DNA of 64,000 nucleotides, taken from the NCBI GenBank assembly GCA_030148705.1, contig JASBSY010000024.1:21212-85211 (forward strand), in the 5' to 3' direction. The notes under the pieces were generated by a model that was not told the DNA's origin, ran no database searches, and was given only the letters and a program-made list of their open reading frames with translations. The translations under genes and the position numbers were made by a program. The DNA is from Pukyongia sp. (GTDB taxonomy: Bacteria; Bacteroidota; Bacteroidia; Flavobacteriales; Flavobacteriaceae). Of the stretch, positions 6,959 through 62,631 are shown piece by piece; position 1 is the stretch's first letter, and each line of letters opens with the position of its first letter.

Positions 6959-7024
6959 TCCCGGAGAATCTATGTTTAGTTTTTACAAAAAACAGTCGGC
7001 TAATTTTGTTACTTTAGCAAGGAT

Positions 7025-7771: not shown

Positions 7772-8535
7772 TGATACGCGTAGAGAACATACATAAGAGT
7801 TTCGAGGAGAATCAGGTGCTAAAAGGCATAAGCACTGTTTTTGAAAAAGGAAAAACCAGTCTGATCATCGGAGCCAGCGGAAGTGGCAAAACAGTGTTAT
7901 TAAAATGCCTGCTCGGACTTTTTCAGCCGGATGAAGGAACTATTTACTACGAGGATAAGGCAATAGGTATCATGGATGATGAAGAACACCGGGAACTTCG
8001 CGAGGAGATCGGGATGCTATTCCAGGGTGGTGCTTTGTTCGATTCCATGACCATAGAGGAGAACGTCATGTTCCCTTTAAGAATGTTCACCAGGCAGAAA
8101 AAAAGTGAGATGCTGGACCGGGTAAACGAGGTACTGGCGCGGGTAAAACTGGAAAATGTAAACAAACGCTTTCCAGCCGAAATTTCCGGCGGGATGCAAA
8201 AAAGGGTGTCGATTGCCCGGGCAATCGTTAATAAACCGAAATATCTGTTTTGTGATGAACCGAACTCCGGGCTGGATCCCAGAACGGCCACTATTATCGA
8301 CAACCTGATCCAGGAGATTACTCACGAATACAACATGACCACAGTAGTGGTTTCCCACGATATGAATTCGGTTATGGAGATTGGAGAAAGCATAGTGTTG
8401 TTAAAAGACGGGGTTCTTGTTTGGGAAGGCACTAACCAGGACATCTTCTCTACCGACAATAAGGATGTAACCGAATTTGTGTATTCATCCGAATTGTTCA
8501 AAAAGATCCGGGAGGTTCAGCAAAAGGAAGGATAA
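7771..8535 (+). CDS. mlaF: MlaF-family ABC ATPase
   Basis: Walker A GASGSGKT, ISGGMQKRV and CDEPNSGLDP; ATG overlaps the mlaE stop. Confidence 0.9.
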   Translation: MIRVENIHKSFEENQVLKGISTVFEKGKTSLIIGASGSGKTVLLKCLLGLFQPDEGTIYYEDKAIGIMDDEEHRELREEIGMLFQGGALFDSMTIEENVMFPLRMFTRQKKSEMLDRVNEVLARVKLENVNKRFPAEISGGMQKRVSIARAIVNKPKYLFCDEPNSGLDPRTATIIDNLIQEITHEYNMTTVVVSHDMNSVMEIGESIVLLKDGVLVWEGTNQDIFSTDNKDVTEFVYSSELFKKIREVQQKEG

Positions 8536-8601: not shown

Positions 8602-10215
8602 ATGATAAATAAATTACTTTTTTGCCTTGTTTGTTGCTTTAGTGCGATATCTATTGGGCAGGTGTCTTTCACCAACGAAGGGGATCTCTTAGGAAATTAT
8701 CCGGATCATTCTGAAGTAGCCGTTGATATGAATGGCGACTACCTGGACGACTATGTGAGAGTTTCTCAGAATGGTATCGGAATCGATTATTCCAACGGCG
8801 ACGGAACCTTCAATTCAGTTTTCTATACAGTTCCCATCGAAAATACGCCCAACTGGAGTATTGCAGCCGGCGATCTTGATGAAAATGGGTATAACGACCT
8901 TGTTCTTGGTAATGGAAGTCGTGTATCCTTCTTGTACGCTAACGCAAACGGAACTGCATATACCGAAACGCCATTTCCCCAATTCATCTTTTCACAACGG
9001 TCCACTATGGCCGATATAGATAATGATGGTGACTTGGACAGTTTTGTTTGTCACGATGTGGATCTTAGTCATCCCTACCGAAACGATGGAACAGGGACTA
9101 TGTCATTAGATCAGACTTTGATCGTTACTATAGACGCTCCGGGTAATTATGCATCCGTTTGGGTGGATTACGACAATGACGGGGATACGGATATGTATCT
9201 CACCAAATGCCGCCAGGGAGCTGCTCCCGGCGACCCATTTAGGGATAATGCCATGTATACCAACAACGGTGACGGAACCTTTACCGAAAACGCCCAGGAC
9301 ATTAATATGCGTGATAATGCGCAGTCGTGGTCCACGGTTTTCGAAGATTTCGACAATGACGGGGATTTCGATGCCTTTATAGTAAACCACGATTTCCAGA
9401 ACAGGTTTATGCTAAACGACGGTACCGGAATGTTTACCGATATTATCGGAGGTACAGGCATTAATGCAAACGACCTGGGAGCCTGGGAGAATCAGGCAGC
9501 CGATTTCAATAATGACGGCTTTGTCGATATCTTTTCAGAACTTTCGAAAGAATTATATATCAACAACGGAGACCTGACGTTTACCGGAATCGACCTTCCG
9601 TTCGACGAAGGCGCTATTGGCGACCTCAACAACGACGGTTTCCTGGATGTGGTTAATGATGGGATTTTCTGGAGAAACAACGGAAACTCCAACAATTGGG
9701 TGAAAATTGCACTTCAGGGCGTAGAAAGCAACTACAACGGCATCGGCGCGCGTGTGGAAATTTACGGAGACTGGGGAATGCAAATACGGGAGGTTCGTTC
9801 AGGTGAAGGATTCAGTCATATGAACTCGCTTGTGGCGCATTTCGGCCTCGGTACTGCCACAACCATAGACCAGATCGTAATTCACTGGCCCAGCGGCATT
9901 GTGGATGTTATTGAAGATCCCAATATCAACGAACAACACATTTACGTGGAAGGAGAGAATATCCTTGCCGTTACCGATTTCCAAAAGGACGGAATCAAAT
10001 TATTCCCGAACCCCACAGTGGACAACATCAATTTCTCACTCCCGGGATTGGAGAATACAGCTGTACGGGTAATGGATGTAAACGGACGTACGGTTTTGAA
10101 CACCGTAATATCTTCTGAAAATTCAATCGATGTTTCAGGACTGAGAAGTGGTGCGTATTTTGTTCAACTGGAAGTTGAGAAAAAACTCGTAAGCTATAAA
10201 TTCGTTAAGCGATAA
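8602..10215 (+). CDS. FG-GAP/CRTAC1-like (ASPIC/UnbV) protein with T9SS C-terminal domain
   Basis: Repeated DxDNDGDxD motifs, NYNGIGARV..HFGLG, C-terminal LFPNP...YKFVKR. Confidence 0.85.
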   Translation: MINKLLFCLVCCFSAISIGQVSFTNEGDLLGNYPDHSEVAVDMNGDYLDDYVRVSQNGIGIDYSNGDGTFNSVFYTVPIENTPNWSIAAGDLDENGYNDLVLGNGSRVSFLYANANGTAYTETPFPQFIFSQRSTMADIDNDGDLDSFVCHDVDLSHPYRNDGTGTMSLDQTLIVTIDAPGNYASVWVDYDNDGDTDMYLTKCRQGAAPGDPFRDNAMYTNNGDGTFTENAQDINMRDNAQSWSTVFEDFDNDGDFDAFIVNHDFQNRFMLNDGTGMFTDIIGGTGINANDLGAWENQAADFNNDGFVDIFSELSKELYINNGDLTFTGIDLPFDEGAIGDLNNDGFLDVVNDGIFWRNNGNSNNWVKIALQGVESNYNGIGARVEIYGDWGMQIREVRSGEGFSHMNSLVAHFGLGTATTIDQIVIHWPSGIVDVIEDPNINEQHIYVEGENILAVTDFQKDGIKLFPNPTVDNINFSLPGLENTAVRVMDVNGRTVLNTVISSENSIDVSGLRSGAYFVQLEVEKKLVSYKFVKR

Positions 10216-10263: not shown

Positions 10264-11695
10264 AGTTCATTCTACGCACCAACAGGGTATCGAGGTTCAG
10301 TTTGAACTTCAGCCATTCGGCCAGTTTCTTTTCATTTGATGTCCTTGTCCTGTTACCTATTCGATTGCTCCAGTCCACCTCAAAAACCGATATGGTGTCC
10401 ACCTTGTCGAAGTTGGTTATCAACTTTCGGCTGTAGCCGAAGGAATTCAGATCAGAATAATTAATCTTAACTTCTTTGCTAAGCTCCTGGAAAGGAACTT
10501 CCGAAATTTTCAACTTGGTGATCTCGTCTTCGAGAAACCGGATACGGGTTTCTTTATCGCGTAGTTTTTGTTCATTATTCACATAGAGGTCTTCCAGGAT
10601 TCCGGCTTTTAGCTCGCCCGAGATCTTTTCGGCAAGTTCCCCGGACTGATCAGTCCCCTGATAGATCTTTAACTGAGTATCGGAGAGCTTATCGGTTTCC
10701 TTTATCGTCTCCATCCATTGGGCAATTTGCGACTGAGGAACCTGTCTGCCTATAAGATAGATCTCAATTTCCTTTGTTTTGTAGTCCTGCGTGAATTTAA
10801 CCACTTCGGCACCGTCATAATTAATCACATCCTTTACGAATTCTTTGGTGGAATTCTCAAAAACCTGCTGATCCAAAAGCTTTACGAACAGTATCACACT
10901 TGGCACCATTACAATTAGGGCAATAAGCGATGCAACCCTGGCAATAAACCGGCGACGTTTCGAGTTTACATATCTCACCATAGGAAAACGCAGCAATTTA
11001 GCTACGATAAATGTGGACAGTGCGATAAAGGTAGCATTGATGGAAAACAGGTATATCGCACCCCCGGCATAGTTCAGGTTTCCAATTGCCAGGCCGTAAC
11101 CCACGGTACACAGGGGCGGCATAAGAGCGGTAGCAATAGCGACCCCGAAAATCACACTGGCGATAGTTCCGCTCTTGGTCTTGGCGACAATGAGGGCAAG
11201 GCCGCCAAAAATGGCTACCAGTACATCCAGAATGGTGGGATACGTCCTGGCCAGCAACTCAGGAGTTTCTTCTGTGAGGGGTGATACCTTAAAATAAAAG
11301 AAGGCCGTTAGGACACTAAGACCTATCATTACCCCCAGATTGATCATAGATCTTCGCAGGGTTTCAACATCGTTTATTGCTACAGACATACCTACCCCAA
11401 CGATCGGACCCATCAGTGGTGAGATAAGCATGGCACCAATTACCACGGCTGCGCTACTTACATTCAGTCCAATTGAAGCCACAAAGATCGAGAAAATGAG
11501 GATCCAGGCATTATGTCCTTTAAACGATATATCTTTCTTAACCGCCAGTATGGTAGCATCGTGATCGGTGTCCGCACGTATATCCAGTAGCTCCTTAACG
11601 AACTTCTTTACGCTTTCCCAGGCGGTAAGTCTTATCTTCTCGAATTGCTGTTCCTCCTGTGCCTGTTCTGCAGCACTTTTTTCTTCTTTGTTCAT
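10262..11695 (-). CDS. DUF389-like membrane protein
   Basis: AAVVIGAMLISPLMGPI and GVAIATALMPPL motifs. Confidence 0.8.
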   Translation of the reverse strand: MNKEEKSAAEQAQEEQQFEKIRLTAWESVKKFVKELLDIRADTDHDATILAVKKDISFKGHNAWILIFSIFVASIGLNVSSAAVVIGAMLISPLMGPIVGVGMSVAINDVETLRRSMINLGVMIGLSVLTAFFYFKVSPLTEETPELLARTYPTILDVLVAIFGGLALIVAKTKSGTIASVIFGVAIATALMPPLCTVGYGLAIGNLNYAGGAIYLFSINATFIALSTFIVAKLLRFPMVRYVNSKRRRFIARVASLIALIVMVPSVILFVKLLDQQVFENSTKEFVKDVINYDGAEVVKFTQDYKTKEIEIYLIGRQVPQSQIAQWMETIKETDKLSDTQLKIYQGTDQSGELAEKISGELKAGILEDLYVNNEQKLRDKETRIRFLEDEITKLKISEVPFQELSKEVKINYSDLNSFGYSRKLITNFDKVDTISVFEVDWSNRIGNRTRTSNEKKLAEWLKFKLNLDTLLVRRMN

Positions 11696-28247: not shown

Positions 28248-28322
28248 GGGCGCTTAGCTCAGTTGGTTCAGAGCACTTGGTTTACACCCAAGGGGTCGGG
28301 GGTTCGAATCCCTCAGCGCCCA
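28248..28322 (+). tRNA. tRNA-Val(TAC), prophage integration target
   Basis: Full cloverleaf; anticodon arm CTTGG-TTTACAC-CCAAG. Confidence 0.97.
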
Positions 28323-28324
28323 CA
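28280..28324 (+). repeat. attL core (3' half of tRNA-Val)
   Basis: GTTTACACCCAAGGGGTCGGGGGTTCGAATCCCTCAGCGCCCACA, identical to 62209-62253. Confidence 0.96.
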
Positions 28325-28416: not shown

Positions 28417-28450
28417 ATTGTACGTACTATTGTACGTAAATTGTACGATT
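28417..28450 (+). repeat. Three ATTGTACG repeats, putative integrase arm sites
   Basis: Copies at 28417, 28429 and 28440; the same motif recurs at 62128-62149 near attR. Confidence 0.7.
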
Positions 28451-29654
28451 GAAAGCTTCAGTTAAATTATTTACTTCAGATGGGGAAACCTCGCAGGGCT
28501 TTCCGGTGAAATTGGTGGTGTCTCATAAAGGGAAAACGCTGCGGCGGACCCTTGGGTATAGTCCGCTGGTTTATTGGGACTCGCTTCGGGGTAAACCTAC
28601 CCCTTCGCACCCGGATTATGAATCGCTTTATGGCCAGATGCTGGATATTGAAAAGAAAGCGTTAACCGCTCAGTTTCGCAATTCTACCGATGTGAACCTG
28701 GCTTTAAATGATCTGCTCGATGTGCCTGAAGCCAGGGATATTCCCCTGGAGTCGTATTTTAAAAAACAGATTTCCCTTATGCGTTCGCAGGGACGGCCGG
28801 GAAATGCCGATGCGTATGTCGCGGTGATGAATCAAATGGAATATTATTCACCGGGGTTGCTTTTAAGTGATATTGATGGGGTTTTATTGGAGCGGTTTAA
28901 ACGATATAAATTGAAAAGCTGTAGCGATAAGACGGTTAAAAATTACCTGGGTGTGCTCCGGGCACTCTATAATAAAGCGCTGGTGGATCCGGATGTGAAT
29001 CTAATGGATAAAGAGCCGTTTAAAGGTGTTATGACCGGGCTTATGGTAAAGCGAAGGCGGAAGAAAAACCGTTATTTGCTGCTAAAAGATATACAGCGAT
29101 TGGATGCGTTGTTCCACTCCAATAATCTTACACGAACTGAAAAGCGGGTGGTTGGATTGAGCTTGCTTCAGTTTTATTTGGGCGGCCTTAATCTGGTGGA
29201 TCTGTATTATTTAAAACGCTCTGCCTTTTATAAAGACAGGATCCTGCTATCCCGGAAAAAACTTGGTCGGTATGCGGAAGAATACGATGTGAGAGTGTTT
29301 CCTGTGGCGCGCGCGATTTTTGATTTTTTTGAAAAGGACCCTACTTATATCTTCCCATGGCGAAAAGATGAGCTGGGTTATAAAACCTTCAGAAGAAACC
29401 ATTACAGATCACTTTTAGCACTTCAGCAAAGACATCAAATTGAGTTACACCCAGTGGATGTAAGGCTTAATATTAATGCCTTTAGGCATACATTTGCCAC
29501 CCTGGGGAAGTTTGCCGGGGTGGACCCGGACATCATTAGGGAATTAATGGGCCACGAACGAAATGATATCGATACCGTTTATAAGGACCGGTATCCCGAA
29601 TCAGTAAGGGATGCAGCTCATGGTAAAATTATTGGAATTGGAACAGAGAAGTGA
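28449..29654 (+). CDS. int: Tyrosine integrase
   Basis: N-terminal arm-binding region, SAM-like core, NAFRHTFAT..ELMGH..TVY; adjacent to attL; TTG start. Confidence 0.92.
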   Translation: MKASVKLFTSDGETSQGFPVKLVVSHKGKTLRRTLGYSPLVYWDSLRGKPTPSHPDYESLYGQMLDIEKKALTAQFRNSTDVNLALNDLLDVPEARDIPLESYFKKQISLMRSQGRPGNADAYVAVMNQMEYYSPGLLLSDIDGVLLERFKRYKLKSCSDKTVKNYLGVLRALYNKALVDPDVNLMDKEPFKGVMTGLMVKRRRKKNRYLLLKDIQRLDALFHSNNLTRTEKRVVGLSLLQFYLGGLNLVDLYYLKRSAFYKDRILLSRKKLGRYAEEYDVRVFPVARAIFDFFEKDPTYIFPWRKDELGYKTFRRNHYRSLLALQQRHQIELHPVDVRLNINAFRHTFATLGKFAGVDPDIIRELMGHERNDIDTVYKDRYPESVRDAAHGKIIGIGTEK

Positions 29655-36550: not shown

Positions 36551-38647
36551 ATGAATTTACAAGTAAATGAAATACCGGAAAACTGGAATCCAGGATGTGT
36601 AAAGTCATTTAATCGATGGGTCTCACGCATCCACAATCACGAAAAACGGCGATATGGTATTCCTATTCGAATCAGTAAAAACAAACAGTAATTAACGGCT
36701 ACGGCCATAAATCATAAAACAATGGAAGAATTAAAAGCGATTGAAAAAGAGCAACCCCAACATTTAGAAATGGCTAAAGAGGTGGCTGAGACATTAATTA
36801 ACACTTGTTCAAGCGAGCAGCAAGCAGAATTTTTAACGTTTGTTCAGAAAGTTATTGATGAAGATTATTGCAACAGGATTGCACGCTGTGAAAAAGAACT
36901 TGCTGTCATAAAAATGGAACACAACAGGTTTTTAGGGAATCCGAATAAACCACAAGAACCTTATTCAAACTAATTGTAGGATATGAGTGATCCACAGATA
37001 AGAGGTAGGTGTATTTCTACTGGGAAAATAATTATTAATTCTCAGGTGACTCAGATCGGAAACAGGATAAACAATGCCGACTGGATTTCCGAAAGAACAG
37101 GATGGTATAAAACAAAACAGTAATTAAGATGAAACCATATCCAAACCACAAATCATTGACATTCGACAAGGAAGCTCAGAATAACCTTCCACAAGAAATC
37201 AAAGACAAAATGAGAAACGACATGCAAGAAGCAAGATTATTCGACTATCTCTCGAAAGAAATTTCGGAAGGAAAAACAGAATTTAGAATCGCCATGCAAT
37301 CTAAAGATGAAGGCATTATACACCCATTAGGGAAGGATGGCAATACATACGATTTTAAAATTATTGACAAAGGAACTTTCCTTTCGTCATCTAAATAAAT
37401 AGTAGCTATTGAGGCTACGTAAAATCAAACGATATGAAACAACTTACAGAACAACAGGCAATTAATTTCGCTAATAGCGAAGAATGGAAGGAATGGACAG
37501 ACGAACAAATTGTAAGGCTACAATTATTCCAAAAAAGACTTTGCGTTCCATTTTCAAGATTTCAAGAAGCTATGACGAAAGTTTTAGGGCGATCCATTTG
37601 GACACACGAATTTACGACGTCGAACCATGATAATTTAGTTCAAGAATATTTAGGAACAAAGCCAGCTCCTTCATTTGAAGAAATTGTAAATCTAATACCC
37701 GAAGAAAAGAGGGTGATATTAAACCTGTAGTATGAGTTGGTATATAATCATGGAAAAGCATCCTGGGGGTAAATGGGAAGATCGTACAGATCCAGACAAT
37801 CATTGGCCGTCTATGAAAATTAAAATGCAGAAAATGAAAAAGGATAGACCAGAAAGTGAATTTAGAATAGTAAAAACGAACTATTAATACTGTAGGTAAT
37901 GGCAATGACACTATTAGGAGATATGAAGCTATCGCATAACATTCTCGATTTTTTAGGATTTGAGTTTGAAAAAGGTGGGTGTAAGTATTTTAAAGTCGAA
38001 TTAGATGCGAAAGGTTGGGCTTTAGTTTGGTGTGAAAGCCTGAAAGATTACTTCATTGAACCTAAATTTCAACCAACATCAAGAATAAGAGTAAGCACGG
38101 TCGATAAATTACACGCTGCTTACATTTTAATAACTGACAAAAATTTTAATCTGTAGAAATCATGGAAAATCAAAAATACAGACTAACGAAGCTAAGCGAT
38201 GATAGGTTTGATGGCCTTCATCCAAACGGAATCAATAAAGGGTATACAAAGAATGGAAACCGTATTCACCCTGAAAAGCCAACCAAAGGAAAAATCTTTT
38301 GGCTCGACAACATGAACACTTCAGTTGTTACCGAGGAAATGAACGATGATGGAATTTTTAAAACTCGAAATTCAACATACAAACTGGAAATACTGTAGAA
38401 TATGGCGCACCATTGTTATATATGTAATTCCGAATGCTATTGCAACGGCAGTATTGATGATGTAATAGTAGATAAGACACCTTCAAATTGTGAAGGATGC
38501 GGATGTGAAGATATGTTTTATGATGAAGATGAACATTTTGATCGATGCGAAGATTGTGACGGACACGATGCGTGTTTAGATTTTGGATGTGCATTTGAAA
38601 ACGGCTGCGGTCATTTAGTAGTAACAGATCCGGCTAAGAGTTGGTAA
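36551..38647 (+). other. Nine small co-oriented ORFs (36551-36691, 36722-36973, 36983-37123, 37129-37398, 37434-37730, 37732-37887, 37899-38156, 38162-38398, 38402-38647)
   Basis: ORF track plus hand translation; each ends at a CWGTAR-type motif. Confidence 0.75.
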
Positions 38648-41329: not shown

Positions 41330-43111
41330 ATGAAGCCTACTAAAGAAATGACATCCTCAACCCCATGGACCTACGCTAACAATGTGCGAAGCGGAAAGAT
41401 CGCGTGCGGAAATTTCATAAAATTAGCAATAGAACGCTTTTACCGATGGGTGGATAATGCCGAGGCAGATGGATATTACATCGATCACGATGCCGGGATG
41501 CGCATAATAGAATTCTTTCCTAAACTCATTAATCACACAAAAGGAAGCATGGCCGGGAAGCCCTTTCACCTGGCACCCTTTCAGCAATTCACTTTATACA
41601 ATCTTTTCGCCTGGAAAAATAAAGAAACCGGCCTGCGGCGAATTAAAAAAGTGTACGATAAACGTGCAAAGAAGAACGGAAAATCGGCAGAGATGGCTGG
41701 GCTTAGTTTGTACGTAATGGCGGCCGATAACGAATATGAAGCCGAAGTATATGTGGGTGCCACTAAAGAGGACCAGGCGAAGATCTGTCACAACCAGGCA
41801 AAACAATTTATAGAATCCCCGGTGGCCAACCCGCTTCTTAAAGCGATAGGATTCAGTACCCGGCTCCGGGAAATCCGCTTCGAAGGAACCGCCAGTAAGA
41901 TGATGCCGCTGGGTGGAGATAGTAAAACCCAGGATGGAATCAATTCGCACGTATCCATTATAGACGAATACCACGCGCATAAGGACGATACGGTAAAAGA
42001 AAACCTGGAGAGTAGTAGTATTCAGCGCCGGCAACCCATCACCTATCACATCACCACTGCCGGGTTCAATACCCAGAGCGTGTGTTATAACTATGAGCAG
42101 GTGTGTAAGGATGTATTGCTGGGCACCAAAGAAGAGAACGACAGCTTGTGGATAATGATCCATGAACTCGATGAGGGTGATGATTGGCAGGATCCCGATA
42201 ATTGGATAAAAGCCAACCCCTTACTTCATAACGGATTGAGCCTGAAACGGCTAATGGAAGAGTATAACGATGCTATCCTTCAGCCCAGTAAACAGAATAA
42301 TTTTAAAACAAAGCACCTCAATATGTGGGTGGACGCTCCCGATGTGTTTATCTCGGATGAAGACTGGATGCGTAATTCTGAAAAGGTCCGTATCGAGAAC
42401 TTTATAAAATACGGATGCGAAGGAGCCATCGACCTGAGTACAACCACCGACCTTACCTCGCTGGGGTTTATTTCGTATCCGGACGATGAAGGGGTGCAGG
42501 ATTTGTTGGTGTTTAACTTTTGTCCTAAAGAAACAATCGACCAGCGGTCTAAAGCCGACAGGGTGCCGTACCGCTTTTGGAGCGAACAGAAGTATGCAGA
42601 CTTTATTACAGTTCCTAAAGAACTGGAAGATGAATTCGCGCACCTGCTTAACGATGTACCGCTTTTGGTGGCCACTCCGGGAAATGTGGTGGACTATAAT
42701 GTATTCGAAGATTATGCGGTATCCTATGCAAAACAACTTACAGCAAAGACGGTGAATTACGACCGGCACAACAGCACGCAGCTTATCACTAATATCGAAG
42801 AGGCCGGGGTAAAATGTATGCAGTTTGCGCAAACGATAATCTATTACAGCTATCCTACAAAGGAATTCGAAAAGCTGGCATTAAGCGGGAAATTGAGGCA
42901 TGGCGGAAATCCGGTATTGCGATGGTGCTTATCCGGCTGTGGGATCTACCGGGATCCAAATGAGAATATCCGGCTCAGTAAAAAGCACAGCTCAAAACGC
43001 ATCGATCCGTTAATTGCATCGGTGATGGCGTTGGCCGGGGTGCTCAATGTGGAGGAGCCCGAAAGAAAACAGAGTGTATATAACGACCCAAATAAAGAAT
43101 TCTATGCCTGA
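41330..43111 (+). CDS. terL: Terminase large subunit
   Basis: Walker A KKNGKS, IIDEYHAH, ITTAG, GAIDLS and RIDP motifs. Confidence 0.95.
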   Translation: MKPTKEMTSSTPWTYANNVRSGKIACGNFIKLAIERFYRWVDNAEADGYYIDHDAGMRIIEFFPKLINHTKGSMAGKPFHLAPFQQFTLYNLFAWKNKETGLRRIKKVYDKRAKKNGKSAEMAGLSLYVMAADNEYEAEVYVGATKEDQAKICHNQAKQFIESPVANPLLKAIGFSTRLREIRFEGTASKMMPLGGDSKTQDGINSHVSIIDEYHAHKDDTVKENLESSSIQRRQPITYHITTAGFNTQSVCYNYEQVCKDVLLGTKEENDSLWIMIHELDEGDDWQDPDNWIKANPLLHNGLSLKRLMEEYNDAILQPSKQNNFKTKHLNMWVDAPDVFISDEDWMRNSEKVRIENFIKYGCEGAIDLSTTTDLTSLGFISYPDDEGVQDLLVFNFCPKETIDQRSKADRVPYRFWSEQKYADFITVPKELEDEFAHLLNDVPLLVATPGNVVDYNVFEDYAVSYAKQLTAKTVNYDRHNSTQLITNIEEAGVKCMQFAQTIIYYSYPTKEFEKLALSGKLRHGGNPVLRWCLSGCGIYRDPNENIRLSKKHSSKRIDPLIASVMALAGVLNVEEPERKQSVYNDPNKEFYA

Positions 43112-43352
43112 ATTTAAACCGCTCGATCAGCTTTCGCACACCGAAAAAGTAACCATTGCAATAAAGTTAAAGGACACCAATAGTTTTTTTACGGCCTATT
43201 TTAATTACCTGCCGTATTTTGGCACCTATAGAGAGTGCTTCGAATATCTTAACGAAATTCACCTGGACATCTTCGGCTCGGAAAAGTACTCCAGCTTCGA
43301 CAGTTTCCGGGTATGTATGTATCGCGATCACCAAAATAAACGAACCCTATGA
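43104..43352 (+). CDS. Hypothetical phage protein
   Basis: ATG overlaps the terL stop. Confidence 0.6.
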   Translation: MPEFKPLDQLSHTEKVTIAIKLKDTNSFFTAYFNYLPYFGTYRECFEYLNEIHLDIFGSEKYSSFDSFRVCMYRDHQNKRTL

Positions 43353-43534
43353 AACCAATATTTATAATACTACGCTTTTTTCTTACCCTGGCCGTTTGCT
43401 TTGCCGGGTCCTTCCTGCTCGATGTAGAGATCATCCGGGATAACTGGCTGCGCTATACAGTGGTAGTGGTAGCCATCGCACTATTTTTTACCTTTATGCT
43501 GAAACTAACTATTAATGATATTAAGAAACTATGA
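43349..43534 (+). CDS. Small two-TM protein
   Basis: Hydrophobic, ATGA-coupled. Confidence 0.55.
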   Translation: MKPIFIILRFFLTLAVCFAGSFLLDVEIIRDNWLRYTVVVVAIALFFTFMLKLTINDIKKL

Positions 43535-44034
43535 AACCAACAGAATTAAGAGTAGGGAACTGGGTCCAGCTGTACAGAAGCCCCGAAGAAAACGAAATGT
43601 ATCCACAACAAATAATTTCTATTGAGTTTGATGCTGTTGGGTATATTACTGGTGAGGGGTATATGTTGCGTTTAGATGACGGCTTTTTTATAAACTGTGA
43701 CACAGGTGTGCTGCCCATCCCTTTAACCGAGGACTGGTTATTAAAGTTTGGCTTTACAAAGGGTGAGCAGACAAAAACTAAAGGCAACGGCGGGGATTAT
43801 CAACCCGAAGATGTTTACACTTTATCAACAATTTACAGTCTATACACGGATGATGATCCTGACGGAAATATAAAATATGAACTATCTACATGGCATTGGA
43901 GGGGAGGTGAACCAGAGAACCAGGACGCTTTTTGGTTTTACCATGATAGTTTAATTAGATGTGAATACGTCCACCAATTACAAAACTTATACCACGCTCT
44001 TACAGGAAAGGAACTTATACCTGTTGCTTTATGA
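43531..44034 (+). CDS. Hypothetical phage protein (ELRVGNWV...HQLQNLY type)
   Basis: ORF track; ATGA-coupled. Confidence 0.65.
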   Translation: MKPTELRVGNWVQLYRSPEENEMYPQQIISIEFDAVGYITGEGYMLRLDDGFFINCDTGVLPIPLTEDWLLKFGFTKGEQTKTKGNGGDYQPEDVYTLSTIYSLYTDDDPDGNIKYELSTWHWRGGEPENQDAFWFYHDSLIRCEYVHQLQNLYHALTGKELIPVAL

Positions 44035-44063
44035 TAAAAGCAATTTATTAAACCAGACAAATT

Positions 44064-45710
44064 ATGAAATCAACGTCCGAACAATCGCAATCAGAAACTA
44101 AGCTATGCCCTATGTGCGGTGTTAGTGGGGGTGCTTTTTTAGCCTTTATTAGAATTGATTACGAAGGTATATATGAAGGCAGTATAAAGTTATTTAAAAG
44201 CAAAACAGCAGCAGATAAATATATCAGTGAGTTAAAGAAAGAAAATGGTGGTGATTCGGTGACTTATGATATTGTAGAGTTGCATTTTCACTAACGGACG
44301 AGTGTATGAATAGTTTTATTATTAAAAACCAAAATTTAATAGATATGATTAAAATAACATTTGAGAACCAAACCGTAGCAATTTCTAAAGACTTGCTAAA
44401 TGACGAAATTATTGATATAGACTTTAACGGTGATATGATGGTGCAATTTAAAAAAGAGAACAATAACACATATACTGCTGTAAATGGTATGAATGGTTGG
44501 GGTCAAAATATAGCTTCTGAAATTGCGGGCAAAAAAGCCACAATCTCCGAATAATAAAATTATTTATACACATTGTTACCTGACGAAGTGAACAGTTTAA
44601 AATACTATTTATTATGAAAAAATGGACTAAAGAAGAAGAGCAAGAATTAGTGAGGCTTACTGAAAATGCGTGGGATTGGAATTTCCCAGGTTATGACTGG
44701 GTAAGAACTCTTTTAGAAGTTGATTACCCGAACGGTCGAACCGTTAACGCAATTAGGAAGAAGTACTATAGTATTTTAAATTGCAGGTAACGTGCCCCGT
44801 GTATGCGGACGTAGCCGATTTAAAAACTAATGTTTAACCTATAAAATACAACTTGATATGAAAACTGAAACTTTAAATACTGCCGAAACTAAGGCTATGT
44901 CGTATGACACGGTGTTAGCAACTGGCTTTGGCGAAGATGATTATGTAGAGGGAGTGTTTCTTATTAAAGCAAAAGCAAAGGAAACTTTCTTTAACCGAAA
45001 AAGAAGGCTTGAAGAAATCACTGGCTTTTCAGATGGTTTTTTTGATTCCTACGAAGAGGATGAAGAAGGTGGAGTTTGGAAAGTGATAACAACAGCTTGG
45101 TTTGAAAATGTTGACGAAATCAAAAAAGCTCTGAAAAAGATGGAAAAGTATAACTGGTTATTTCAGTACGATTCATCTATACTTTTTGAGGGCAAAGAAA
45201 TTTACTGTGATGGCAGGTGGCTTGTTTAAGCTTGTTGCTAACGGTTTGGTTATGCTTCCGTTGTGAGTAAAATCCGCAGGATTTTCCGAGTAGGAAGCTA
45301 CCAAACCAAGAATAGAATTAGATTGAATTATTAACAAAAAAGCAATGGAGTATAACCGTTGTTGTAAAACGTTTTTTAGCAATGCCCAAAACAAACACAA
45401 AATTACGATTAAAAGCTATTTTAAAATGGAATAAAGAAACTGTTTATGTTGAACCAATTTTATTTAGTTGGCACGTTGGTATACAATATAAAGTATTAAC
45501 TGGTAATAGTTCTGGTTCTTTATTTTGCAGGAAAAGAAGTGATTTTATTTTTCCTTTACAAACTAAAATAGCAATGCTTATTGTAAAAGCCTATTATTGG
45601 ATTTATGAAGGTGGTTATTGGCAAGGTAGAAGGAAAATAAAAACACGTATAAAAAGGTATAAATTAAGACATAATGAAGGTGATTTACCTTTCTAAATGT
45701 TTTACAACGT
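44064..45710 (+). mobile_element. Integron-like cassette array (attC cluster without integron integrase)
   Basis: attC-like hairpins at 44289-44581, 44784-44920 and 45234-45367; cassette-end complementarity; genes 44064-44294, 44345-44554, 44614-44790, 44858-45229 and 45382-45696. Confidence 0.85.
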
Positions 45711-45803
45711 CGTATATCACTAATAAACGAAACATTGTTTACATAAATAGATTTTAACCCTACCTACATTTACCTCATTCATAGTTGATTGGTTTTAGGT
45801 TAA

Positions 45804-47018
45804 ATGGAAAGTAGTATTACAAGAACGTTAAAGTCTATGGTATCGCTTTCACCGGGCGGAGAGAGCCGAAGCGCGGGGAATGTTTCGCTCTCTTCGCTTT
45901 TTGGTTTTGGTGCATCCGGAACTTCCGTTGTTAATCACGAAACCGCTCTTACCATCCCCGCACTCTTTAACGGGGTTGATCAAATTTCCAACGACATTGC
46001 AAAGCTTCCTAAAGGCGTTTATAGGAAAATAGATAACGGCCGCGAGGAAGTAAAGCACCGCATTAAATACCTTATCAATAAGGAGCCCAACAGGCAGATG
46101 GATGCCTTTACCTTCCATAAGATAATGACTCAGGCCGCAATTCTACGCGGCAACGGCCTGGCCGTGATCCTTCGCCATCCTAATACCGCAGCACTGGAAT
46201 CCCTGGTGTTTATCCACCCGGACGATATTCGGGACATACGGATGATTAAAGGCGATGTGTACTACATCACTAAATACGGTACGTTCACTTCAGACGAAGT
46301 AATTCACATTATGGGTTATACCGATAATGGCTGGCTCGGTAAAAGCGTTATCCGCTATGCAGCCGAAACACTGGGAATCGCTAAATCTGCTCAATCCTTT
46401 GCCGCTTGTAATTTCGATAATAGAGGTATTGGATATGGAGTAGTTCATACCGATAACGAAGTATCTCCTGAAGGTAAACAAAAGATCGAGGCCGGCATCA
46501 ATGCAAAGATGTCTATAAAAGATCGTTTCCGTACAGCTGTCATTGATGAAGGGATGAAGTATGAAGCTATTTCGGTTAGTGCTCAGGACGCGCAGTTAAT
46601 TGAGCAATCAAAGTTTTCTGTGATCGACATTTGCCGCTTCCTTAATATCTCCCCCAGGAAGGTGAAGGATTATACCATTAACAATTATGCTTCGGCCTAC
46701 CAGGATGCCACAGATCATGTAACAGACAGCATTCAGCCCTGGTCTAAAAAATTCGAAAACGAATACGACCGGAAGCTTTTCACCGCCACCGAAAAGGAAG
46801 ATCACTACGTAAAGTTTAATGATAATTACCTGCTTCGCGGGGACCTTACTGCAAAGTCTAATTACTATTTCAGGGCGACAGCCGGCGGATGGATGACAAT
46901 CAATGAGGTACGGGCTATGGAAGAACTCAATCCCATCGATGGAGGGGATGAGCCGCTTATCCCTATGAATATGCAGCAGGTAAAACAACTTGAAAATTCT
47001 ATGCAAGATGAAAAATAA
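45804..47018 (+). CDS. Portal protein, HK97 family
   Basis: PNRQMDAFTF, GNGLAVI, EVIHI, VIDEGMKY and TINEVRAMEELNP motifs. Confidence 0.95.
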   Translation: MESSITRTLKSMVSLSPGGESRSAGNVSLSSLFGFGASGTSVVNHETALTIPALFNGVDQISNDIAKLPKGVYRKIDNGREEVKHRIKYLINKEPNRQMDAFTFHKIMTQAAILRGNGLAVILRHPNTAALESLVFIHPDDIRDIRMIKGDVYYITKYGTFTSDEVIHIMGYTDNGWLGKSVIRYAAETLGIAKSAQSFAACNFDNRGIGYGVVHTDNEVSPEGKQKIEAGINAKMSIKDRFRTAVIDEGMKYEAISVSAQDAQLIEQSKFSVIDICRFLNISPRKVKDYTINNYASAYQDATDHVTDSIQPWSKKFENEYDRKLFTATEKEDHYVKFNDNYLLRGDLTAKSNYYFRATAGGWMTINEVRAMEELNPIDGGDEPLIPMNMQQVKQLENSMQDEK

Positions 47019-52216: not shown

Positions 52217-52289
52217 CGCGGCATGGAGCAGTTGGCAGCTCGCCTGCTTGCTTTGCAGGAGGTCACAGGTTCGAATCCTGTTGCCGCTA
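52217..52289 (+). tRNA. Atypical tRNA-like element: fMet-type body, GCT anticodon, short variable loop
   Basis: Perfect cloverleaf CGCGGCA/TG/GAGC-AGTTGGCA-GCTC/G/CCTGC-TTGCTTT-GCAGG/AGGTC/ACAGG-TTCGAAT-CCTGT/TGCCGCT/A. Confidence 0.9.
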
Positions 52290-52320
52290 CTAGAAGTATA
52301 ATTTAAAAGGGAATTGCCGA

Positions 52321-54606
52321 AGCGCGAGTTTAAGTAAAATAAACATTAAGTTTCATGCAGATCTGAAAGAATTCTCTTCTCAGATGCAGAATGCGGAGCG
52401 CTCCATGCAGAAGTTCGGGAAGAAACTGCGGGGTGCGGGCGCGGCACTTTCGGTAGGACTTACAGCACCTATTGTGGCTCTTGGCGCAAAAGGTGTTTTT
52501 GCTTTCGACCAGCAGGCAAAAGCCATCGCCCAAGTGGAAGCCGGTATAAAAAGTACCGGTGGCGCTGCCGGAAAAACGGCAACCGAACTAACAAAAATGG
52601 CCGCTTCCTTACAGGGAAGTACGCTCTTTGGCGACGAAGAGATATTAAAAGACGTTACAGCACAGCTTCTTACATTCACAAACATTGCAGGGACTCAGTT
52701 CGACAGGACCCAAAAGGCTGTACTAGATCTGGCCACCCGCCTCGATGGTGACTTGAAAAGCGCCTCCATACAATTAGGAAAAGCCCTTAACGATCCTGTG
52801 GCTAATTTAAGCGCCTTGTCCCGGTCCGGGATTCAATTCTCCACAGACCAGAAAAAGGTAATAAAATCCCTGGTAGAAACCGGGCGAATTGCCGAGGCGC
52901 AAACAGTTATACTCGATGAACTTGAAAAGCAATATGGCGGAGCTGCCGAAGCAGCCGCAAAGGCAGGATTAGGTCCGTTTAAACAGCTGGGTAATGCCCT
53001 GGGGGATCTTACCGAAGATTTTGGAAAGATCATCGTGGAAGCCCTGCTTCCGTTCGTGGAAAAACTAAAGTCGGTTGTATCGTCGCTTCAAAACCTCGAT
53101 GACGGTACAAAGAAAACCATTGCGATAGTCGCGGGATTTGCCGCTGCTTTAGGCCCGATATTGTTTACAATAGGATACCTGGCCACCAATGTTATTCCCG
53201 GATTGATCGTTGCTTTAAAAGCGCTTCAGCTGGCTATTATGACCAATCCGATAGGTGCTTTAGCCACTACGGTAACTGTATTTGCCGGAGCGGTATTGCT
53301 CGCAAATACCCGCCTTACATCACTTACCGATGCAAATAAAGAGTTTGCAAACCTGAGCGCACAGGCCGGGCGAAGTATTGCGGCCGAAAAGGTGGCGCTG
53401 GATAACCTTATCCGCACAGCTAACAATGAGCGTATAAGTAAAGAAAAGCGCCTCGATGCTATAAAAGAACTTAATCGAGTTGTTCCACAATATAACGGTG
53501 AGCTCACTCTTGAAACATTAAATACAGATAAGGCGCGTGAGGCCACTGATAAGTATGTTCAGAGTTTATTGTTAAAGGCTAAAGTACAGGCCGCTCAGGA
53601 AAAATTGGTTGAAGTAGAAAGACAGCTGCTCGATCTTATGCTTGGACAATCGGAAGCGGCAGATCCTTCCTTCTGGCAAAACCTGGGTAACGCGGTTACC
53701 TCCTTCGGAAGCCAGTCGGCTTATATGGGTAAAACCCTGGAGACGGTTGTGGATAATATGCAGGAGGAAGAAAAACAACTTACCTCGCTTCAGAAAAAAT
53801 TACTCGGCTTCCTTCAGTCCAATCAGGATGTGGTAGATGGTCTTAAAGGACAGGAAACTACCCTGGCCGATGTGGGGGCTCAGGGGGATCAAACAAGGAA
53901 ATCGCTCACAAAGCTTACCGGGGTGATGAATACCATGTTCGTGGATAACGAACCAACTGAGTTATATACCTGGGTGGATGCAATGAACCAGGTGGGGGCT
54001 GCGGCTAATAAGCTTATCCCCACACTAACAAAGGCACAACAGACAGCCGGGGCGGTAGCGGCATCCATCAACGAACAGGTGGGTCCTGCTATACAGGATG
54101 CGGCGGCCACCATCGCTTCGGGATTTGGTAAGATATTGGCGGGGTTCGCAACCGGGACCAGCGGCCTTCGGGATATTGCGAACCTTATTATTGGCACCCT
54201 GGGAGATCTTATGATCCGCCTGGGTGAGATTGCTATTCAGGCGGGAATTGGTATCCAGGCAATTAAGGCTGCCTTCGAAAGCTTAAACCCTGCTGTGGCT
54301 ATTGCCGCCGGTATTGCCCTTATTGCGTTTGGTTCGCTTATTAAATCGGCAATACAATCTGCACCGCCGGATGTTGCCCTGGCTCAGGGTGGATTGGTAC
54401 GCGGGGAAACCCTTGCTTTAATTGGGGATAACCGTAATGCTGCCTTCGATCCGGAAGTGGTTGCACCCCTGAGTAAGCTACGAGACTTTATAAATCCTAA
54501 CCAGGGCGCCGGCGGGGTCGATGTGCATATAAGCGGAAAGCTTGAAGGAAACGACCTGAAGCTTGTTATCGACAGGCAAATAGAAAGAAAGATTCGGTTA
54601 AAATGA
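52321..54606 (+). CDS. Tail tape measure protein (ORF track start 52384; open extension from AGC at 52321)
   Basis: Ala/Gly-rich helical protein, QLGKALNDP motif; in-frame extension ASLSKINIKFHADLKEFSSQ has no ATG/GTG/TTG. Confidence 0.9.
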   Translation, partial: SASLSKINIKFHADLKEFSSQMQNAERSMQKFGKKLRGAGAALSVGLTAPIVALGAKGVFAFDQQAKAIAQVEAGIKSTGGAAGKTATELTKMAASLQGSTLFGDEEILKDVTAQLLTFTNIAGTQFDRTQKAVLDLATRLDGDLKSASIQLGKALNDPVANLSALSRSGIQFSTDQKKVIKSLVETGRIAEAQTVILDELEKQYGGAAEAAAKAGLGPFKQLGNALGDLTEDFGKIIVEALLPFVEKLKSVVSSLQNLDDGTKKTIAIVAGFAAALGPILFTIGYLATNVIPGLIVALKALQLAIMTNPIGALATTVTVFAGAVLLANTRLTSLTDANKEFANLSAQAGRSIAAEKVALDNLIRTANNERISKEKRLDAIKELNRVVPQYNGELTLETLNTDKAREATDKYVQSLLLKAKVQAAQEKLVEVERQLLDLMLGQSEAADPSFWQNLGNAVTSFGSQSAYMGKTLETVVDNMQEEEKQLTSLQKKLLGFLQSNQDVVDGLKGQETTLADVGAQGDQTRKSLTKLTGVMNTMFVDNEPTELYTWVDAMNQVGAAANKLIPTLTKAQQTAGAVAASINEQVGPAIQDAAATIASGFGKILAGFATGTSGLRDIANLIIGTLGDLMIRLGEIAIQAGIGIQAIKAAFESLNPAVAIAAGIALIAFGSLIKSAIQSAPPDVALAQGGLVRGETLALIGDNRNAAFDPEVVAPLSKLRDFINPNQGAGGVDVHISGKLEGNDLKLVIDRQIERKIRLK

Positions 54607-59386: not shown

Positions 59387-59737
59387 TTGGTAAAGGCTAT
59401 GGAAACAGACGTAAACATTTGGGCGTGTATAGGCCTGGGGCTTTTAGGGATTGTGTTCTTCACGTTCTTTAAGTCCAGGAAACACTTTATTGAGTGGAAC
59501 CCCTTTAAGCCGAGAACGGTTAAGGTAAATGATACATGGAGTTTTAGCGTACTGCTGCAAGAGAATTTCGGGGCGTGGCTATGGTCGTTTGTAATGATCG
59601 TACTGGTGGCCGTTGTGGTTGGATACATCCCGGATGTGGCAGAGGCTATTTCAGAGAATTTAGGGTTAACGGTAGGAACGACATCGAAGTCGTTCTTCAC
59701 TTTAGGCATTGCCCTGTCAGCACTTGTAAAAAAATAA
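59387..59737 (+). CDS. Multi-TM membrane protein, holin candidate
   Basis: Three hydrophobic segments, basic C-terminus. Confidence 0.55.
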   Translation: MVKAMETDVNIWACIGLGLLGIVFFTFFKSRKHFIEWNPFKPRTVKVNDTWSFSVLLQENFGAWLWSFVMIVLVAVVVGYIPDVAEAISENLGLTVGTTSKSFFTLGIALSALVKK

Positions 59738-59754
59738 CCTAACACGTATATGCG

Positions 59755-62127: not shown

Positions 62128-62208
62128 AATGTACGATTATTGTACGATTGGAATATTTACAGATTGTAATGTATTGAAAATACGCATGTTACAAAATAAT
62201 ACCTCTTA

Positions 62209-62253
62209 GTTTACACCCAAGGGGTCGGGGGTTCGAATCCCTCAGCGCCCACA
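62209..62253 (+). repeat. attR core (displaced 3' half of tRNA-Val)
   Basis: Identical to 28280-28324; followed by the host hairpin AATCCCGGTT...AACCGGGATT. Confidence 0.96.
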
Positions 62254-62529: not shown

Positions 62530-62604
62530 GGGTCATTAACTCAGTTGGTTCAGAGTGTTACCTTGACAGGGTAGAAGTCACTGGTTCGAATCCAGTATGA
62601 CCCA
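62530..62604 (+). tRNA. tRNA-Val(GAC)
   Basis: Cloverleaf with anticodon arm TTACC-TTGACAG-GGTAG; TAATTTTG promoter box at 62511-62518. Confidence 0.96.
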
Positions 62605-62631
62605 CATCAAATAGAATTCCGGTGCGACAGC

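Follow-up and report, generated by a model that had tools for sequence, protein, structure and literature searches.

How can a complete gene lie between the arms of a hairpin-type recombination site, and what does such a site move? The question is raised by the window, i.e. the whole stretch of 64,000 nucleotides analysed here, from contig JASBSY010000024.1 of Pukyongia sp. (Flavobacteriaceae). The window is a prophage. In its low-GC small-gene array, with the terminase on one side and the portal on the other, an earlier note described an oversized attC site with a gene in its loop and proposed that the cassette moves two genes. The features concerned, in window coordinates, are the following.

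28449-29654: prophage integrase, the sole recombinase gene found in the window
44064-44294, + strand: 76-aa open reading frame upstream of site A; its final bases make up the 5' box of the site
44289-44581, + strand: site A as a whole, 293 bp with a loop of 226 nt
44289-44295, + strand: 5' R box of site A, CACTAAC, with the conserved triplet AAC at 44293-44295
44296-44301, + strand: left spacer GGACGA, 6 nt unpaired, identical in phage P12002L and many viral contigs
44302-44323, + strand: left arm, with the family core GTGTATGAATAGT at 44302-44314 and a variable extension at 44315-44323
44324-44549, + strand: loop, holding the 69-aa gene
44345-44554, + strand: 69-aa gene, under purifying selection and with a confident beta-rich model
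44550-44571, + strand: right arm, with a variable extension at 44550-44558 and the conserved core ATTATTTATACAC at 44559-44571
44572-44582, + strand: 3-nt spacer ATT, then the 3' R box GTTACCTG at 44575-44582
44614-44790, + strand: 58-aa Myb/SANT-like gene (phrog_37969), the cassette gene travelling with site A

An inverted-repeat search recovered the arms as the earlier note had drawn them, pairing over 22 bp with two G-T pairs. The arms of 22 nt are 91% complementary and lie 226 nt apart; the stem consists of 20 Watson-Crick and 2 G:T pairs, with G opposite T on the + strand. The size reported for the site, about 293 bp against about 135 bp for its neighbours, was likewise found (138 bp and about 135 bp in the neighbours). 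When the + strand is folded as single-stranded DNA, the 22-bp stem of site A appears in both the minimum-energy and the centroid structures; the − strand folds without it. The arms are preserved in a Winogradskyella forsetii locus (L001) and in a metagenome contig (L002), with compensatory double changes at position 3 (G-C to A-T) and position 9 (A-T to G-C).

In AT-rich DNA such arms could pair by chance, or they could be the halves of two decayed sites flanking an ordinary gene. The GC content around site A (34%) and the occurrence of isolated half-sites (near 9763 and 10870 of L002, and ahead of the 58-aa gene in L012) agree with this. It is nevertheless extremely improbable. None of 200 shuffles of 43001-46000 that kept the local composition produced an inverted repeat matching at 20/22 or better within 400 nt, and the arms pair for 9 bp more outside the cores. 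Together with the shuffles, the two compensatory changes and the recurrence of the same architecture with different extensions and open reading frames contradict the idea, considered in the earlier note, of remnants of two separate decayed sites.

The enclosed reading frame is open from 44306 to 44554, with an ATG at 44306 in the left arm and the stop TAA (44552-44554) in the right arm, in agreement with the first description. In all homologues of the protein (68-70 aa) translation starts at the ATG that corresponds to 44345. A longer reading of 82 aa is absent from all records and was rejected; the start of the 69-aa form is the real one. The gene has a dN/dS of 0.12-0.20, and its product is modelled as beta-rich with a pLDDT of 93; despite this model, Pfam, PHROGs and Foldseek (PDB and BFVD) returned no relatives. 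By these sequence-based measures the 69-aa loop gene is real and conserved. The earlier note raised the question of whether its homologues are flanked by arms as well, which is so in L001 and L002; in L004 the gene is present without any surrounding site. A transposon or MITE reading of the arms was dropped, since the arms are conserved site cores, target duplications are absent and the gene is arm-free in L004.

The extent of the mobile unit is indicated by other genomes. Similarity to them begins at the AAC of the 5' box, which is therefore the presumed crossover point, and metagenome matches have loose ends at 44291/44292, in this box, and at 44791, the downstream edge of the unit. The unit 44293-44791 comprises site A, the 69-aa gene and the 58-aa gene and is intact in three other flanking contexts; in the window, L001 and L002 it runs from TAAC to AGGTAAC(G), and the flanks differ in each. 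Because it recurs intact in other flanks, and because the loop of site A holds the 69-aa gene beside the 58-aa gene, the cassette carries two genes and appears to move them together. This part of the earlier proposal stands, with the downstream 58-aa gene as the partner instead of the upstream 76-aa gene. Pfam and PHROG searches gave no match for the 76-aa frame; within it, GTTAGTG at 44119-44125 is complementary to CACTAAC and may be a decayed 3' box. In the phage site family, the hairpin moves 5' of its gene, and the gene strand is equivalent to the attC bottom strand. The first 7 nt of the 3' box of site A are GTTACCT (44575-44581), and GTTACCTG is complementary to CAGGTAAC at 44784-44791.

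No short-loop form directly upstream of the 58-aa gene was found in the metagenome scan. A looser scan recovered a site with a 4-nt loop, whose 3' box and leader are as for the 58-aa gene and whose gene is different. A joint of 44314 to 44559 with 46 other letters was first taken as an empty allele of site A. This reading was rejected because a common short hairpin, GTGTATGAGTAGT-GGCAC...GTGCC-ATTACTTATACAC, with 47 nt between identical cores, would give the same signal; the joint is evidence for no more than the existence of short-loop relatives that share these cores. Of the 23 sequencing runs listed, only two are flagged as RNA, both wastewater metagenomes with about 1/10 of the sequence words.

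Site A is followed by further sites and cassettes up to the portal gene.

44784-44921, + strand: site B, 138 bp; on the left CAGGTAAC, spacer GTGCCCC and left arm 44799-44810; on the right, right arm 44899-44910, spacer GGT and GTTAGCAA at 44914-44921; stem with two bulges
44858-45229, + strand: 123-aa cassette gene, starting inside the loop of site B; its N-terminal 21 codons lie in the loop, right arm and 3' box
45235-45370, + strand: site C, about 135 bp; TTGCTAAC, spacer, left arm GTTATGCTTCC, loop of ~90 nt with an inner hairpin, right arm GGAGTATAAC and GTTGTAAAAC at 45361-45370
45382-45696, + strand: 104-aa cassette gene
45699-45708, + strand: terminal 5' box GTTTTACAAC, 10/10 complementary to 45361-45370, followed by the degenerate left half GTCGTATATCAC
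45804: portal gene, 3' of the terminal box and degenerate left half

Sites A, B and C and the terminal box thus occupy 44289-45708, all on the + strand. All 8 nt of the 3' box of site B are complementary to TTGCTAAC at 45235-45242, and contigs from other metagenomes match 44788-45243 exactly. Both half-sites of site C are found at high depth in many metagenome contexts, and a form without the 104-aa gene occurs in another metagenome (joint 45376 to 45690). When sites of the phage family are counted, the array has at least two sites on one strand and no integron integrase nearby; it is thus a CALIN, defined by at least two attC sites on the same strand, less than 4 kb apart, without an integron integrase nearby.

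The sites belong to a family of which 45 distinct versions were collected from Polaribacter phage P12002L, Flavobacteriaceae prophages and ~30 viral contigs. On the gene strand the family reads RYYYAAC, ~6 unpaired nt, an arm beginning GTRTATGARTAGT, the loop, an arm ending ATTAYTTATAYAC, 3 nt and GTTRRRY. The inverted AAC/GTT boxes are present in all 45 sites, a left spacer of 6 nt occurs in 30/45 and a right spacer of 3 nt in 43/45. G:T occupies arm position 7 in 41/45 sites and position 12 in 35/45, and non-Watson-Crick pairs are G:T on the + strand. Stem cells are paired in 92.7% of cases against 70.1% after shuffling (0/500), and the covariation score is 0.571 against 0.150 (0/500), with slid partners at no more than 0.17; the sites had first passed a stem filter requiring 11 pairs or more, so that pairing at the inner positions is inflated.

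Scored over the 6 variable positions next to AAC/GTT, a site's own pair of boxes matches no better than random (2.17/6 vs 2.03/6). Between neighbouring sites, the match of a 3' box to the following 5' box reaches 4.25/6, and is 5/6 or more in 35 of 48 consecutive pairs. Since the 3' box and the next 5' box of a unit are complementary, a circularised unit would rebuild a complete site. L001 contains a 320-bp duplication from AAC to AAC with 100% identity, and one common short hairpin with 14 copies has 8 different upstream boxes and only 3 downstream. Hairpins and genes are also sometimes re-assorted: L033, L035 and L038 share arms and differ in their 3' boxes, and L051 differs again. A single crossover point therefore cannot account for everything.

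The loop gene of site A is not a unique case. At least 12 distinct sites (~1/4) have loops of 138-335 nt that hold whole, mutually unrelated open reading frames of 44-101 aa, and nested genes are thus recurrent in the family; across it, long loops (135-355 nt) often contain whole genes or gene starts. The short members have 62-130 bp. P12002L has site cores and a cassette gene as in the window and a different loop frame (50 aa). Pfam gave no match for seven other loop frames, nor for a reverse-oriented gene in L024. Mean stem length is 19.2 bp for long loops against 15.5 bp for short ones (p = 0.002). Large inserts in the loops may be tolerated since nothing but the boxes and the stem would matter, with longer stems proposed to offset longer loops.

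Recombinase homologues of 263-271 aa lie on the same strand directly downstream of the arrays in L001, L024, L033, L054, L055 and L056. For L035, tblastn gave no more than a partial match, located downstream of the sites. Prophages of W. forsetii (CP053350) and P. haliotis (CP061813) encode such a recombinase. In L056 the array and recombinase occupy the terminase-to-portal slot, as does the array of the window. An attI-like block, AAC followed by TAYTATATAYCAAC, 40-50 nt before the recombinase ATG, is common to the six full-length loci, L056 being more divergent. The recombinase of the relatives scores 108 bits against TIGR02249 (cutoff 265), has 25 residues at the IntI-specific insertion versus 64 in IntI4 and aligns end to end with XerA (5hxy). 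Judged from its sequence, the enzyme beside the arrays in relatives is Xer-like and lacks the IntI-specific insertion. The L001 enzyme might simply be the integrase of that prophage; the fixed position behind arrays and the conserved AAC-TAYTATATA block speak otherwise. The window has no Xer-like recombinase homologue and, after its last box, no convincing candidate for the attI-like block. As an array without a recombinase, it would depend on one supplied in trans.

An Xer-like enzyme without the IntI insertion is also what would be expected of double-stranded Xer-type modules like those of Acinetobacter pdif. Each half-site (box, spacer and arm core) would then be a duplex core site, with sites alternating in orientation; the loop and cassette genes would be modules between inverted sites, and short hairpins two adjacent inverted sites. 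The left half indeed has a 6-nt spacer between two conserved blocks, as in an Xer core, genes flank every half-site on both sides, and Xer-site-flanked gene modules are already known (PMC7399989). This explanation is considered quite unlikely, however, because the arm extensions past the 13-nt core differ in sequence while their complementarity is kept, and stem length rises with loop size. Furthermore, the halves differ systematically, with G versus A at positions 7 and 12 and spacers of 6 versus 3 nt, and are thus not equivalent inverted duplex core sites with a 6-nt central region. Spacer sequences vary among sites, which duplex exchange across a central region would not tolerate, and the box and arm core of a half-site are not mutual inverted copies.

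Since the strand that folds and the mRNA strand are one and the same, these data do not separate a role of the RNA from a role of the DNA. The stems could act in early polycistronic mRNA (processing, stability, translation) as regulatory cassettes shuffled by homologous recombination, like T4-type promoter-early stem-loops, the conserved 20-nt halves being recombination patches. The structure is on the sense strand with G:U-compatible pairs, start codons are frequently inside loops, hairpins and genes are re-assorted at conserved cores in some cases, and sites abound in the lytic phage P12002L, in which no Xer-like recombinase homologue was found. This reading is nevertheless unlikely. It leaves unexplained the perfect 8-10-nt complementarity of variable boxes around each gene, the confinement of unit edges to the AAC triplet with just 4-5 nt in common, and the tight association with a recombinase gene and a conserved attI-like block. 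In one L024 cassette a 216-aa gene lies on the opposite strand, and the flanking sites retain the array orientation. Rfam at gathering thresholds returned three tRNAs only for the window and left site A unmatched.

In L055, three hairpins have a group II intron at their 3' side, inserted on the + strand between GT and T (Rfam RF02001/RF00029). IIC-attC introns target the attC bottom strand (PMC3001079), so the + strand behaves as its equivalent; terminator hairpins are targets of group IIC introns as well (PMC3001079), in keeping with an RNA-level role.

Site A is thus probably an attC-like recombination site of the hairpin type, within an integron-like cassette system borne by phages; its anatomy is seen directly, and from it we infer recombination. 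The mobile unit spans AAC to the next AAC and includes the hairpin, the 3' box, the gene and the next 5' box. The + strand would fold as single-stranded DNA, a small Xer-like tyrosine recombinase would cut at the 5' AAC, and cassettes would be excised and inserted in the integron manner. The excised cassette would have the circular junction CAGGTAA joined to CGGACGA, i.e. ...TTGCAGGTAA joined to CGGACGAGTGTATG...; in the contig data no circular junction, excised form or recombination was observed. Against this explanation count the recombinase itself, which is without the insertion by which IntI acts on folded single strands, its absence from the window and from P12002L, the re-assortment of hairpins and genes, and the failure of a P12002L site of this layout with IntI1 (PMC9892861).

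The chances are about even that phages and prophages of Flavobacteriaceae, and broadly of Bacteroidota, possess their own integron class with a small Xer-like recombinase without the I2 insertion, an attI-like site, fixed-G:T hairpins, cargo on the folded strand and the loop as a second cargo slot (two genes per cassette), standard finders missing the long sites through a length cap. An integron-like gene-cassette system in marine Flavobacteriaceae phages is apparently undescribed. If true, this is a parallel, phage-run system with a simpler Xer-like enzyme, hairpin loops can house genes of up to ~100 codons, and cargo orientation is opposite to that of canonical integrons. The system would shape the hypervariable small-gene regions of these phages, including methyltransferases (cargo in P12002L and L002) and likely anti-defence genes, and would offer a testable mechanism of phage mosaicism at single-gene resolution. 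The I2 helix is considered the decisive novelty of IntI (PMC7790495), so the system bears on the origin of single-strand recombination by tyrosine recombinases.

Several known systems resemble the phage arrays. In T4-type phages, small ORFs of hyperplastic regions are reportedly accompanied by conserved stem-loop repeats (PeSLs, a description attributed to Arbiol and co-workers, 2010) that mediate modular shuffling; these are said to be promoter and terminator-like elements recombined by homology. Small phage ORFs, each flanked by stem-loop repeats, are common to both, whereas the AAC/GTT boxes, the complementarity of boxes across genes and the dedicated recombinase are absent from PeSLs. The pdif sites, reportedly described by Blackwell and Hall in 2017 as 28-bp duplexes with 6-nt spacers on both sides, used by host XerC/D and requiring no hairpin, share gene modules between inverted sites for Xer-type recombinases, with site orientation alternating along the array. 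Unlike them, the phage sites have halves that covary as a stem, with spacers of unequal length and differences at two fixed positions. The L055 introns, just 3' of a hairpin on the attC-bottom-equivalent strand, are placed as IIC-attC introns are; insertion beside plain terminator hairpins is typical of class IIC too.

Integrons are the textbook means of capturing single-gene cassettes, and their sites are regarded as short hairpins for a specialised integrase. The attC identity given to site A in the earlier note holds in part. Inverted boxes (CACTAAC and GTTACCT), an imperfect palindrome with unpaired spacers supported by covariation, and complementary boxes across the cassette are found in the site A unit; the last of these, seen family-wide, is the cassette signature. 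Conserved extrahelical bases are absent, with G:T pairs instead and bulges in site B only, and an adjacent intI with the additional domain is lacking in the window and its relatives. Site A, at 293 bp with a 226-nt loop, exceeds the attC length of 57-141 bp (PMC3458562) and the variable terminal structure of 20-100 nt (PMC4889954), which the short family members fit. Integrase-less cassette arrays (CALINs), including phage ones, are documented (Qi et al. 2023, PMC9892861; Cury et al. 2016, PMC4889954). For P12002L, an earlier study listed two attC sites, and one of them, P12002L_attC1, was the sole one of six phage sites without IntI1 recombinants (PMC9892861). Only this one has the box and spacer layout of the phage family, of which at least 11 sites were found here in P12002L; integron finders thus under-report the family.

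The likeness to integrons therefore comprises the inverted AAC/GTT boxes, unpaired spacers, imperfect palindromic stem and variable loop; strand-specific folding, box complementarity across the cassette gene and the presumed crossover at the AAC of the bottom-like strand; in relatives, an attI-like sequence after the array and then a tyrosine recombinase gene, in equal relative geometry; and group II introns on the bottom-like strand. The phage system differs from integrons in its Xer-like recombinase of 263-271 aa without the IntI-specific insertion and in cargo genes on the folded strand, the reverse of the usual orientation. From attC its sites differ in conserved G:T pairs in place of extrahelical bases, in arms strongly conserved in sequence over the first 13 nt, and in loops of 135-355 nt that often contain genes or gene starts.

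The stretch consists of bacterial chromosome and a prophage of ~34 kb, and its sequence comes from a ballast-water metagenome. Site A, the hairpin attC-like site at 44289-44581 (plus strand), is located in a run of small ORFs between the terminase and portal genes, where GC is 34% vs 44-46% on either side.

28276-28324 and 62205-62253: ends of the prophage, where 49 nt from the tRNA-Val(tac) 3' end (tRNA at 28248-28324) are repeated, 98% identity, 34 kb apart
28449-29654: integrase, 401 aa, adjoining tRNA-Val(tac)
41330-43111: large terminase
44289-44295: 5' box of site A, CACTAAC, followed by a 6-nt spacer and the left arm
44575-44581: 3' box of site A, GTTACCT, after the right arm and a 3-nt spacer
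45804-47018: portal

A second tRNA-Val(gac) is present just beyond the prophage end (62530-62605). The structural module of the prophage holds a tRNA-Ser(gct) (52217-52290), directly ahead of a 740-aa ORF (52384-54606).

The 22-nt arms with two G-T pairs described in the earlier note were found at 44302-44323 and 44550-44571, 226 nt apart, with 20 Watson-Crick and two G:T pairs. No repeat of this type arose in 200 composition-preserving shuffles of 43001-46000. When the plus strand was folded as single-stranded DNA, the 22-bp stem was present in both the minimum-energy and the centroid structures; it was not formed by the minus strand. In a Winogradskyella forsetii prophage (L001) and a metagenome contig (L002), a homologue of the 69-aa gene is enclosed by equivalent arms, which differ from those of the window by two double compensatory changes. 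The arms are a conserved matched pair, and these changes contradict their being remnants of two decayed sites.

The nested 69-aa ORF has also held up. Six relatives of 68-70 aa were found, one being a W. forsetii protein, and all six begin at the ATG that corresponds to 44345. The dN/dS is 0.12-0.20, and the AlphaFold model is beta-rich with pLDDT 93. The common start, low dN/dS and confident model show it to be a real gene; structure and family searches gave neither a structural nor a family match. Arms flank the gene in L001 and L002 but not in a further locus, L004, where similarity to the window is limited to 44316-44562 and the gene lies outside any site.

The cassette at 44293-44791 has two genes: the 69-aa gene lies within the hairpin loop, and the 3' box is followed by a Myb-like gene of 58 aa (phrog_37969). 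The segment common to the window, L001 and L002 extends from TAAC (44292) to AGGTAAC(G) (44792) with 90% identity, and its flanks are unrelated in each. The cassette appears to have moved intact, reaching at least three flanking contexts. The observation behind the earlier note is thus confirmed and its interpretation partly supported: two genes do share one unit, but the partner is the downstream 58-aa gene and not the upstream 76-aa ORF. In Polaribacter phage P12002L, the 58-aa cassette is 94.6% identical with identical site cores, while its 144-nt loop holds a different 50-aa ORF (gp41). Since the 69-aa gene exists outside sites in L004 and the P12002L loop contains another ORF, the loop is best read as an exchangeable slot. 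In two further contigs (L051 700-830; L052 190-320), the 3' box and 19-nt leader of the 58-aa cassette (GTTACCTGACGAAGTGAAC) come after a site whose loop measures 4 nt, and the gene behind the leader encodes a C5 DNA methyltransferase; this arrangement implies an exchange point within the cassette leader.

The family search covered P12002L, two prophages, IMG/VR contigs matching the left half, and further loci; a matching right arm was present in 25 of the 28 IMG/VR contigs. It yielded 45 distinct sites. On the gene strand, the consensus begins with RYYYAAC, a spacer (6 nt in 30/45), the arm GTRTATGARTAGT with a variable extension, and the loop; it continues with the extension and arm ATTAYTTATAYAC, a spacer (3 nt in 43/45) and GTTRRRY. 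A G:T pair occupies arm position 7 in 41/45 sites and position 12 in 35/45. In the arm alignment, 92.7% of cells are paired vs 70.1% after shuffling (0/500), and the covariation score is 0.571 vs 0.150 shuffled (0/500) and at most 0.17 with slid partners, for sites that needed 11 or more stem pairs to be chosen, a filter that favours inner-position pairing. The variety of pair types seen at positions 8-11 and 14-16 is not accounted for by this filter. The exact 21-nt left-half motif was also seen outside Bacteroidota, in a beta-proteobacterial MAG chromosome (OY968775, L044), a Thermoplasmatales MAG (L045) and a Gallionellaceae MAG (L048), which may reflect phage contigs binned wrongly or a truly wider host range. 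The window contains three TAAC-N-GTATATG matches vs 0.39 expected: sites A and B, and a lone match without a partner arm at an ORF end in the lysis/late region (59735-59752), probably due to chance.

Loop lengths are bimodal: 25 loops are short, at 7-90 nt, and 19 are long, at 135-355 nt. At least 12 distinct sites enclose a whole ORF of 44-101 aa, and these loop ORFs are mutually unrelated. The mean stem is 19.2 bp with long loops vs 15.5 bp with short ones (p = 0.002), as expected under selection for folding. In about 10 further sites the cassette gene starts in the loop, which means that translation runs through the right arm and 3' box and that the site sequence constrains the protein. Many cassettes have their first 20-45 codons within the loop (window 44858-44921; L001 7338-7486; L002 11060-11123), and in the 123-aa protein of the window the translated right arm and 3' box include ...SYDTVLA....

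Within arrays, a site's own two boxes match at 2.17/6 variable positions vs 2.03/6 for random pairs; the 3' box and the next site's 5' box, on either side of the gene, reach 4.25/6, and 35/48 consecutive pairs reach at least 5/6. In the window, GTTACCTG (44575) pairs with CAGGTAAC (44784), GTTAGCAA (44914) with TTGCTAAC (45235), and GTTGTAAAAC (45361) with GTTTTACAAC (45699). The arrays therefore have the integron cassette signature. Empty cassettes, with a 3' box and complementary 5' box 12-30 nt apart, also occur (L002 10490-10520; L040 689-717; L035 692-729), e.g. GTTGTAAAATCGTTTTAATGTTTTACAAC.

A 320-bp duplication in L001 is bounded AAC to AAC. Contigs from other metagenomes have exact match limits at 44788-45243 and loose ends at 44291/44292 and 44791, and one common short hairpin (14 copies) has eight different upstream boxes vs only three downstream. 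Because of these limits, and the ends of the shared segment, the unit can be described as hairpin, 3' box, gene and next 5' box, with exchange apparently limited to the AAC triplet. The 4-5 nt common at AAC are too few for homologous recombination. Hairpin and downstream gene are sometimes re-assorted at conserved cores, which points to extra homology-based exchange or a second crossover point. The 104-aa gene of the window is missing from one metagenome form (joint 45376 to 45690, run X3).

Folded strand and mRNA strand coincide, and the hairpins may have an RNA role (processing or stability) alongside or instead of a DNA role. A cassette in L024 (7489-8139, minus strand) carries a 216-aa ORF with a hydrophobic N-terminus between GTTGTGAGC and GCTCACAAC. 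Cargo can thus face either way, while the flanking sites retain the array orientation, which speaks for a role at the DNA level.

Six loci encode a tyrosine recombinase of 263-271 aa right behind the array and on its strand:

L001, W. forsetii prophage: 9047-9862
L024: 8588-9388
L033 (reverse complement): 10836-11639
L056, Polaribacter haliotis: 7001-7800
L054, Tenacibaculum, and L055, Changchengzhania lutea: also present

The tblastn match in L035, also downstream of the sites, was only partial. After the last AAC, 40-50 nt ahead of the recombinase start codon, a block AAC|TAYTATATAYCAAC is conserved, L056 being the most divergent of the six aligned. The block and the recombinase are candidates for the attI and integrase of the cassette system. 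The recombinase family has >2000 members at E < 1e-20, annotated solely as XerD or tyrosine recombinase, and aligns end to end with XerA (5hxy, 5e-25). It lacks ~39 residues that IntI4 has at the IntI-specific insertion and scores under the integron-integrase cutoff. As this Xer-like enzyme is without the single-strand adaptation of IntI, a pdif-like mechanism acting on duplex DNA is a serious rival to recombination of the folded strand; against the duplex mechanism stand the complementary variable arm extensions, the fixed G:T pairs and the unequal spacers. In L056, the array and recombinase lie between terminase and portal, and the terminase is 53% identical to that of the window. No homologue of the recombinase was found in the window, so its array is a recombinase-less cluster.

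In L055 (CP039456, 1-5830), three group II intron copies with a 426-aa RT (Rfam RF02001 and RF00029) sit directly behind the right arms of hairpins on the plus (array) strand, where they interrupt the 3' box at GT|T. IIC-attC introns target the attC bottom strand (PMC3001079), and by this analogy the placement offers an independent hint on the site system.

Clusters of attC in phages, including two sites in P12002L, were reported by Qi et al. 2023 (PMC9892861). P12002L attC1, which shares the box and spacer layout of the site A family, was the only one of six sites not recombined by IntI1 (PMC9892861). The phage has at least 11 family sites, nearly all on the early-gene strand. P12002L_attC2, recombined with IntI1 (PMC9892861), is contained in a 77-nt repeat (29172-29248 and 37198-37274, 97% identity) on the strand opposite to the family. 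For canonical attC, the published lengths are 57-141 bp for the site (PMC3458562) and 20-100 nt for the terminal structure (PMC4889954). No description of an Xer-like platform, fixed G:T pairs, reversed cargo orientation or gene-bearing loops was found in the literature, and the site A family probably represents a widespread integron-like system of Bacteroidota phages, apparently undescribed so far. Compared with canonical integrons, the gene strand here corresponds to the attC bottom strand, and the cargo orientation is reversed relative to theirs.
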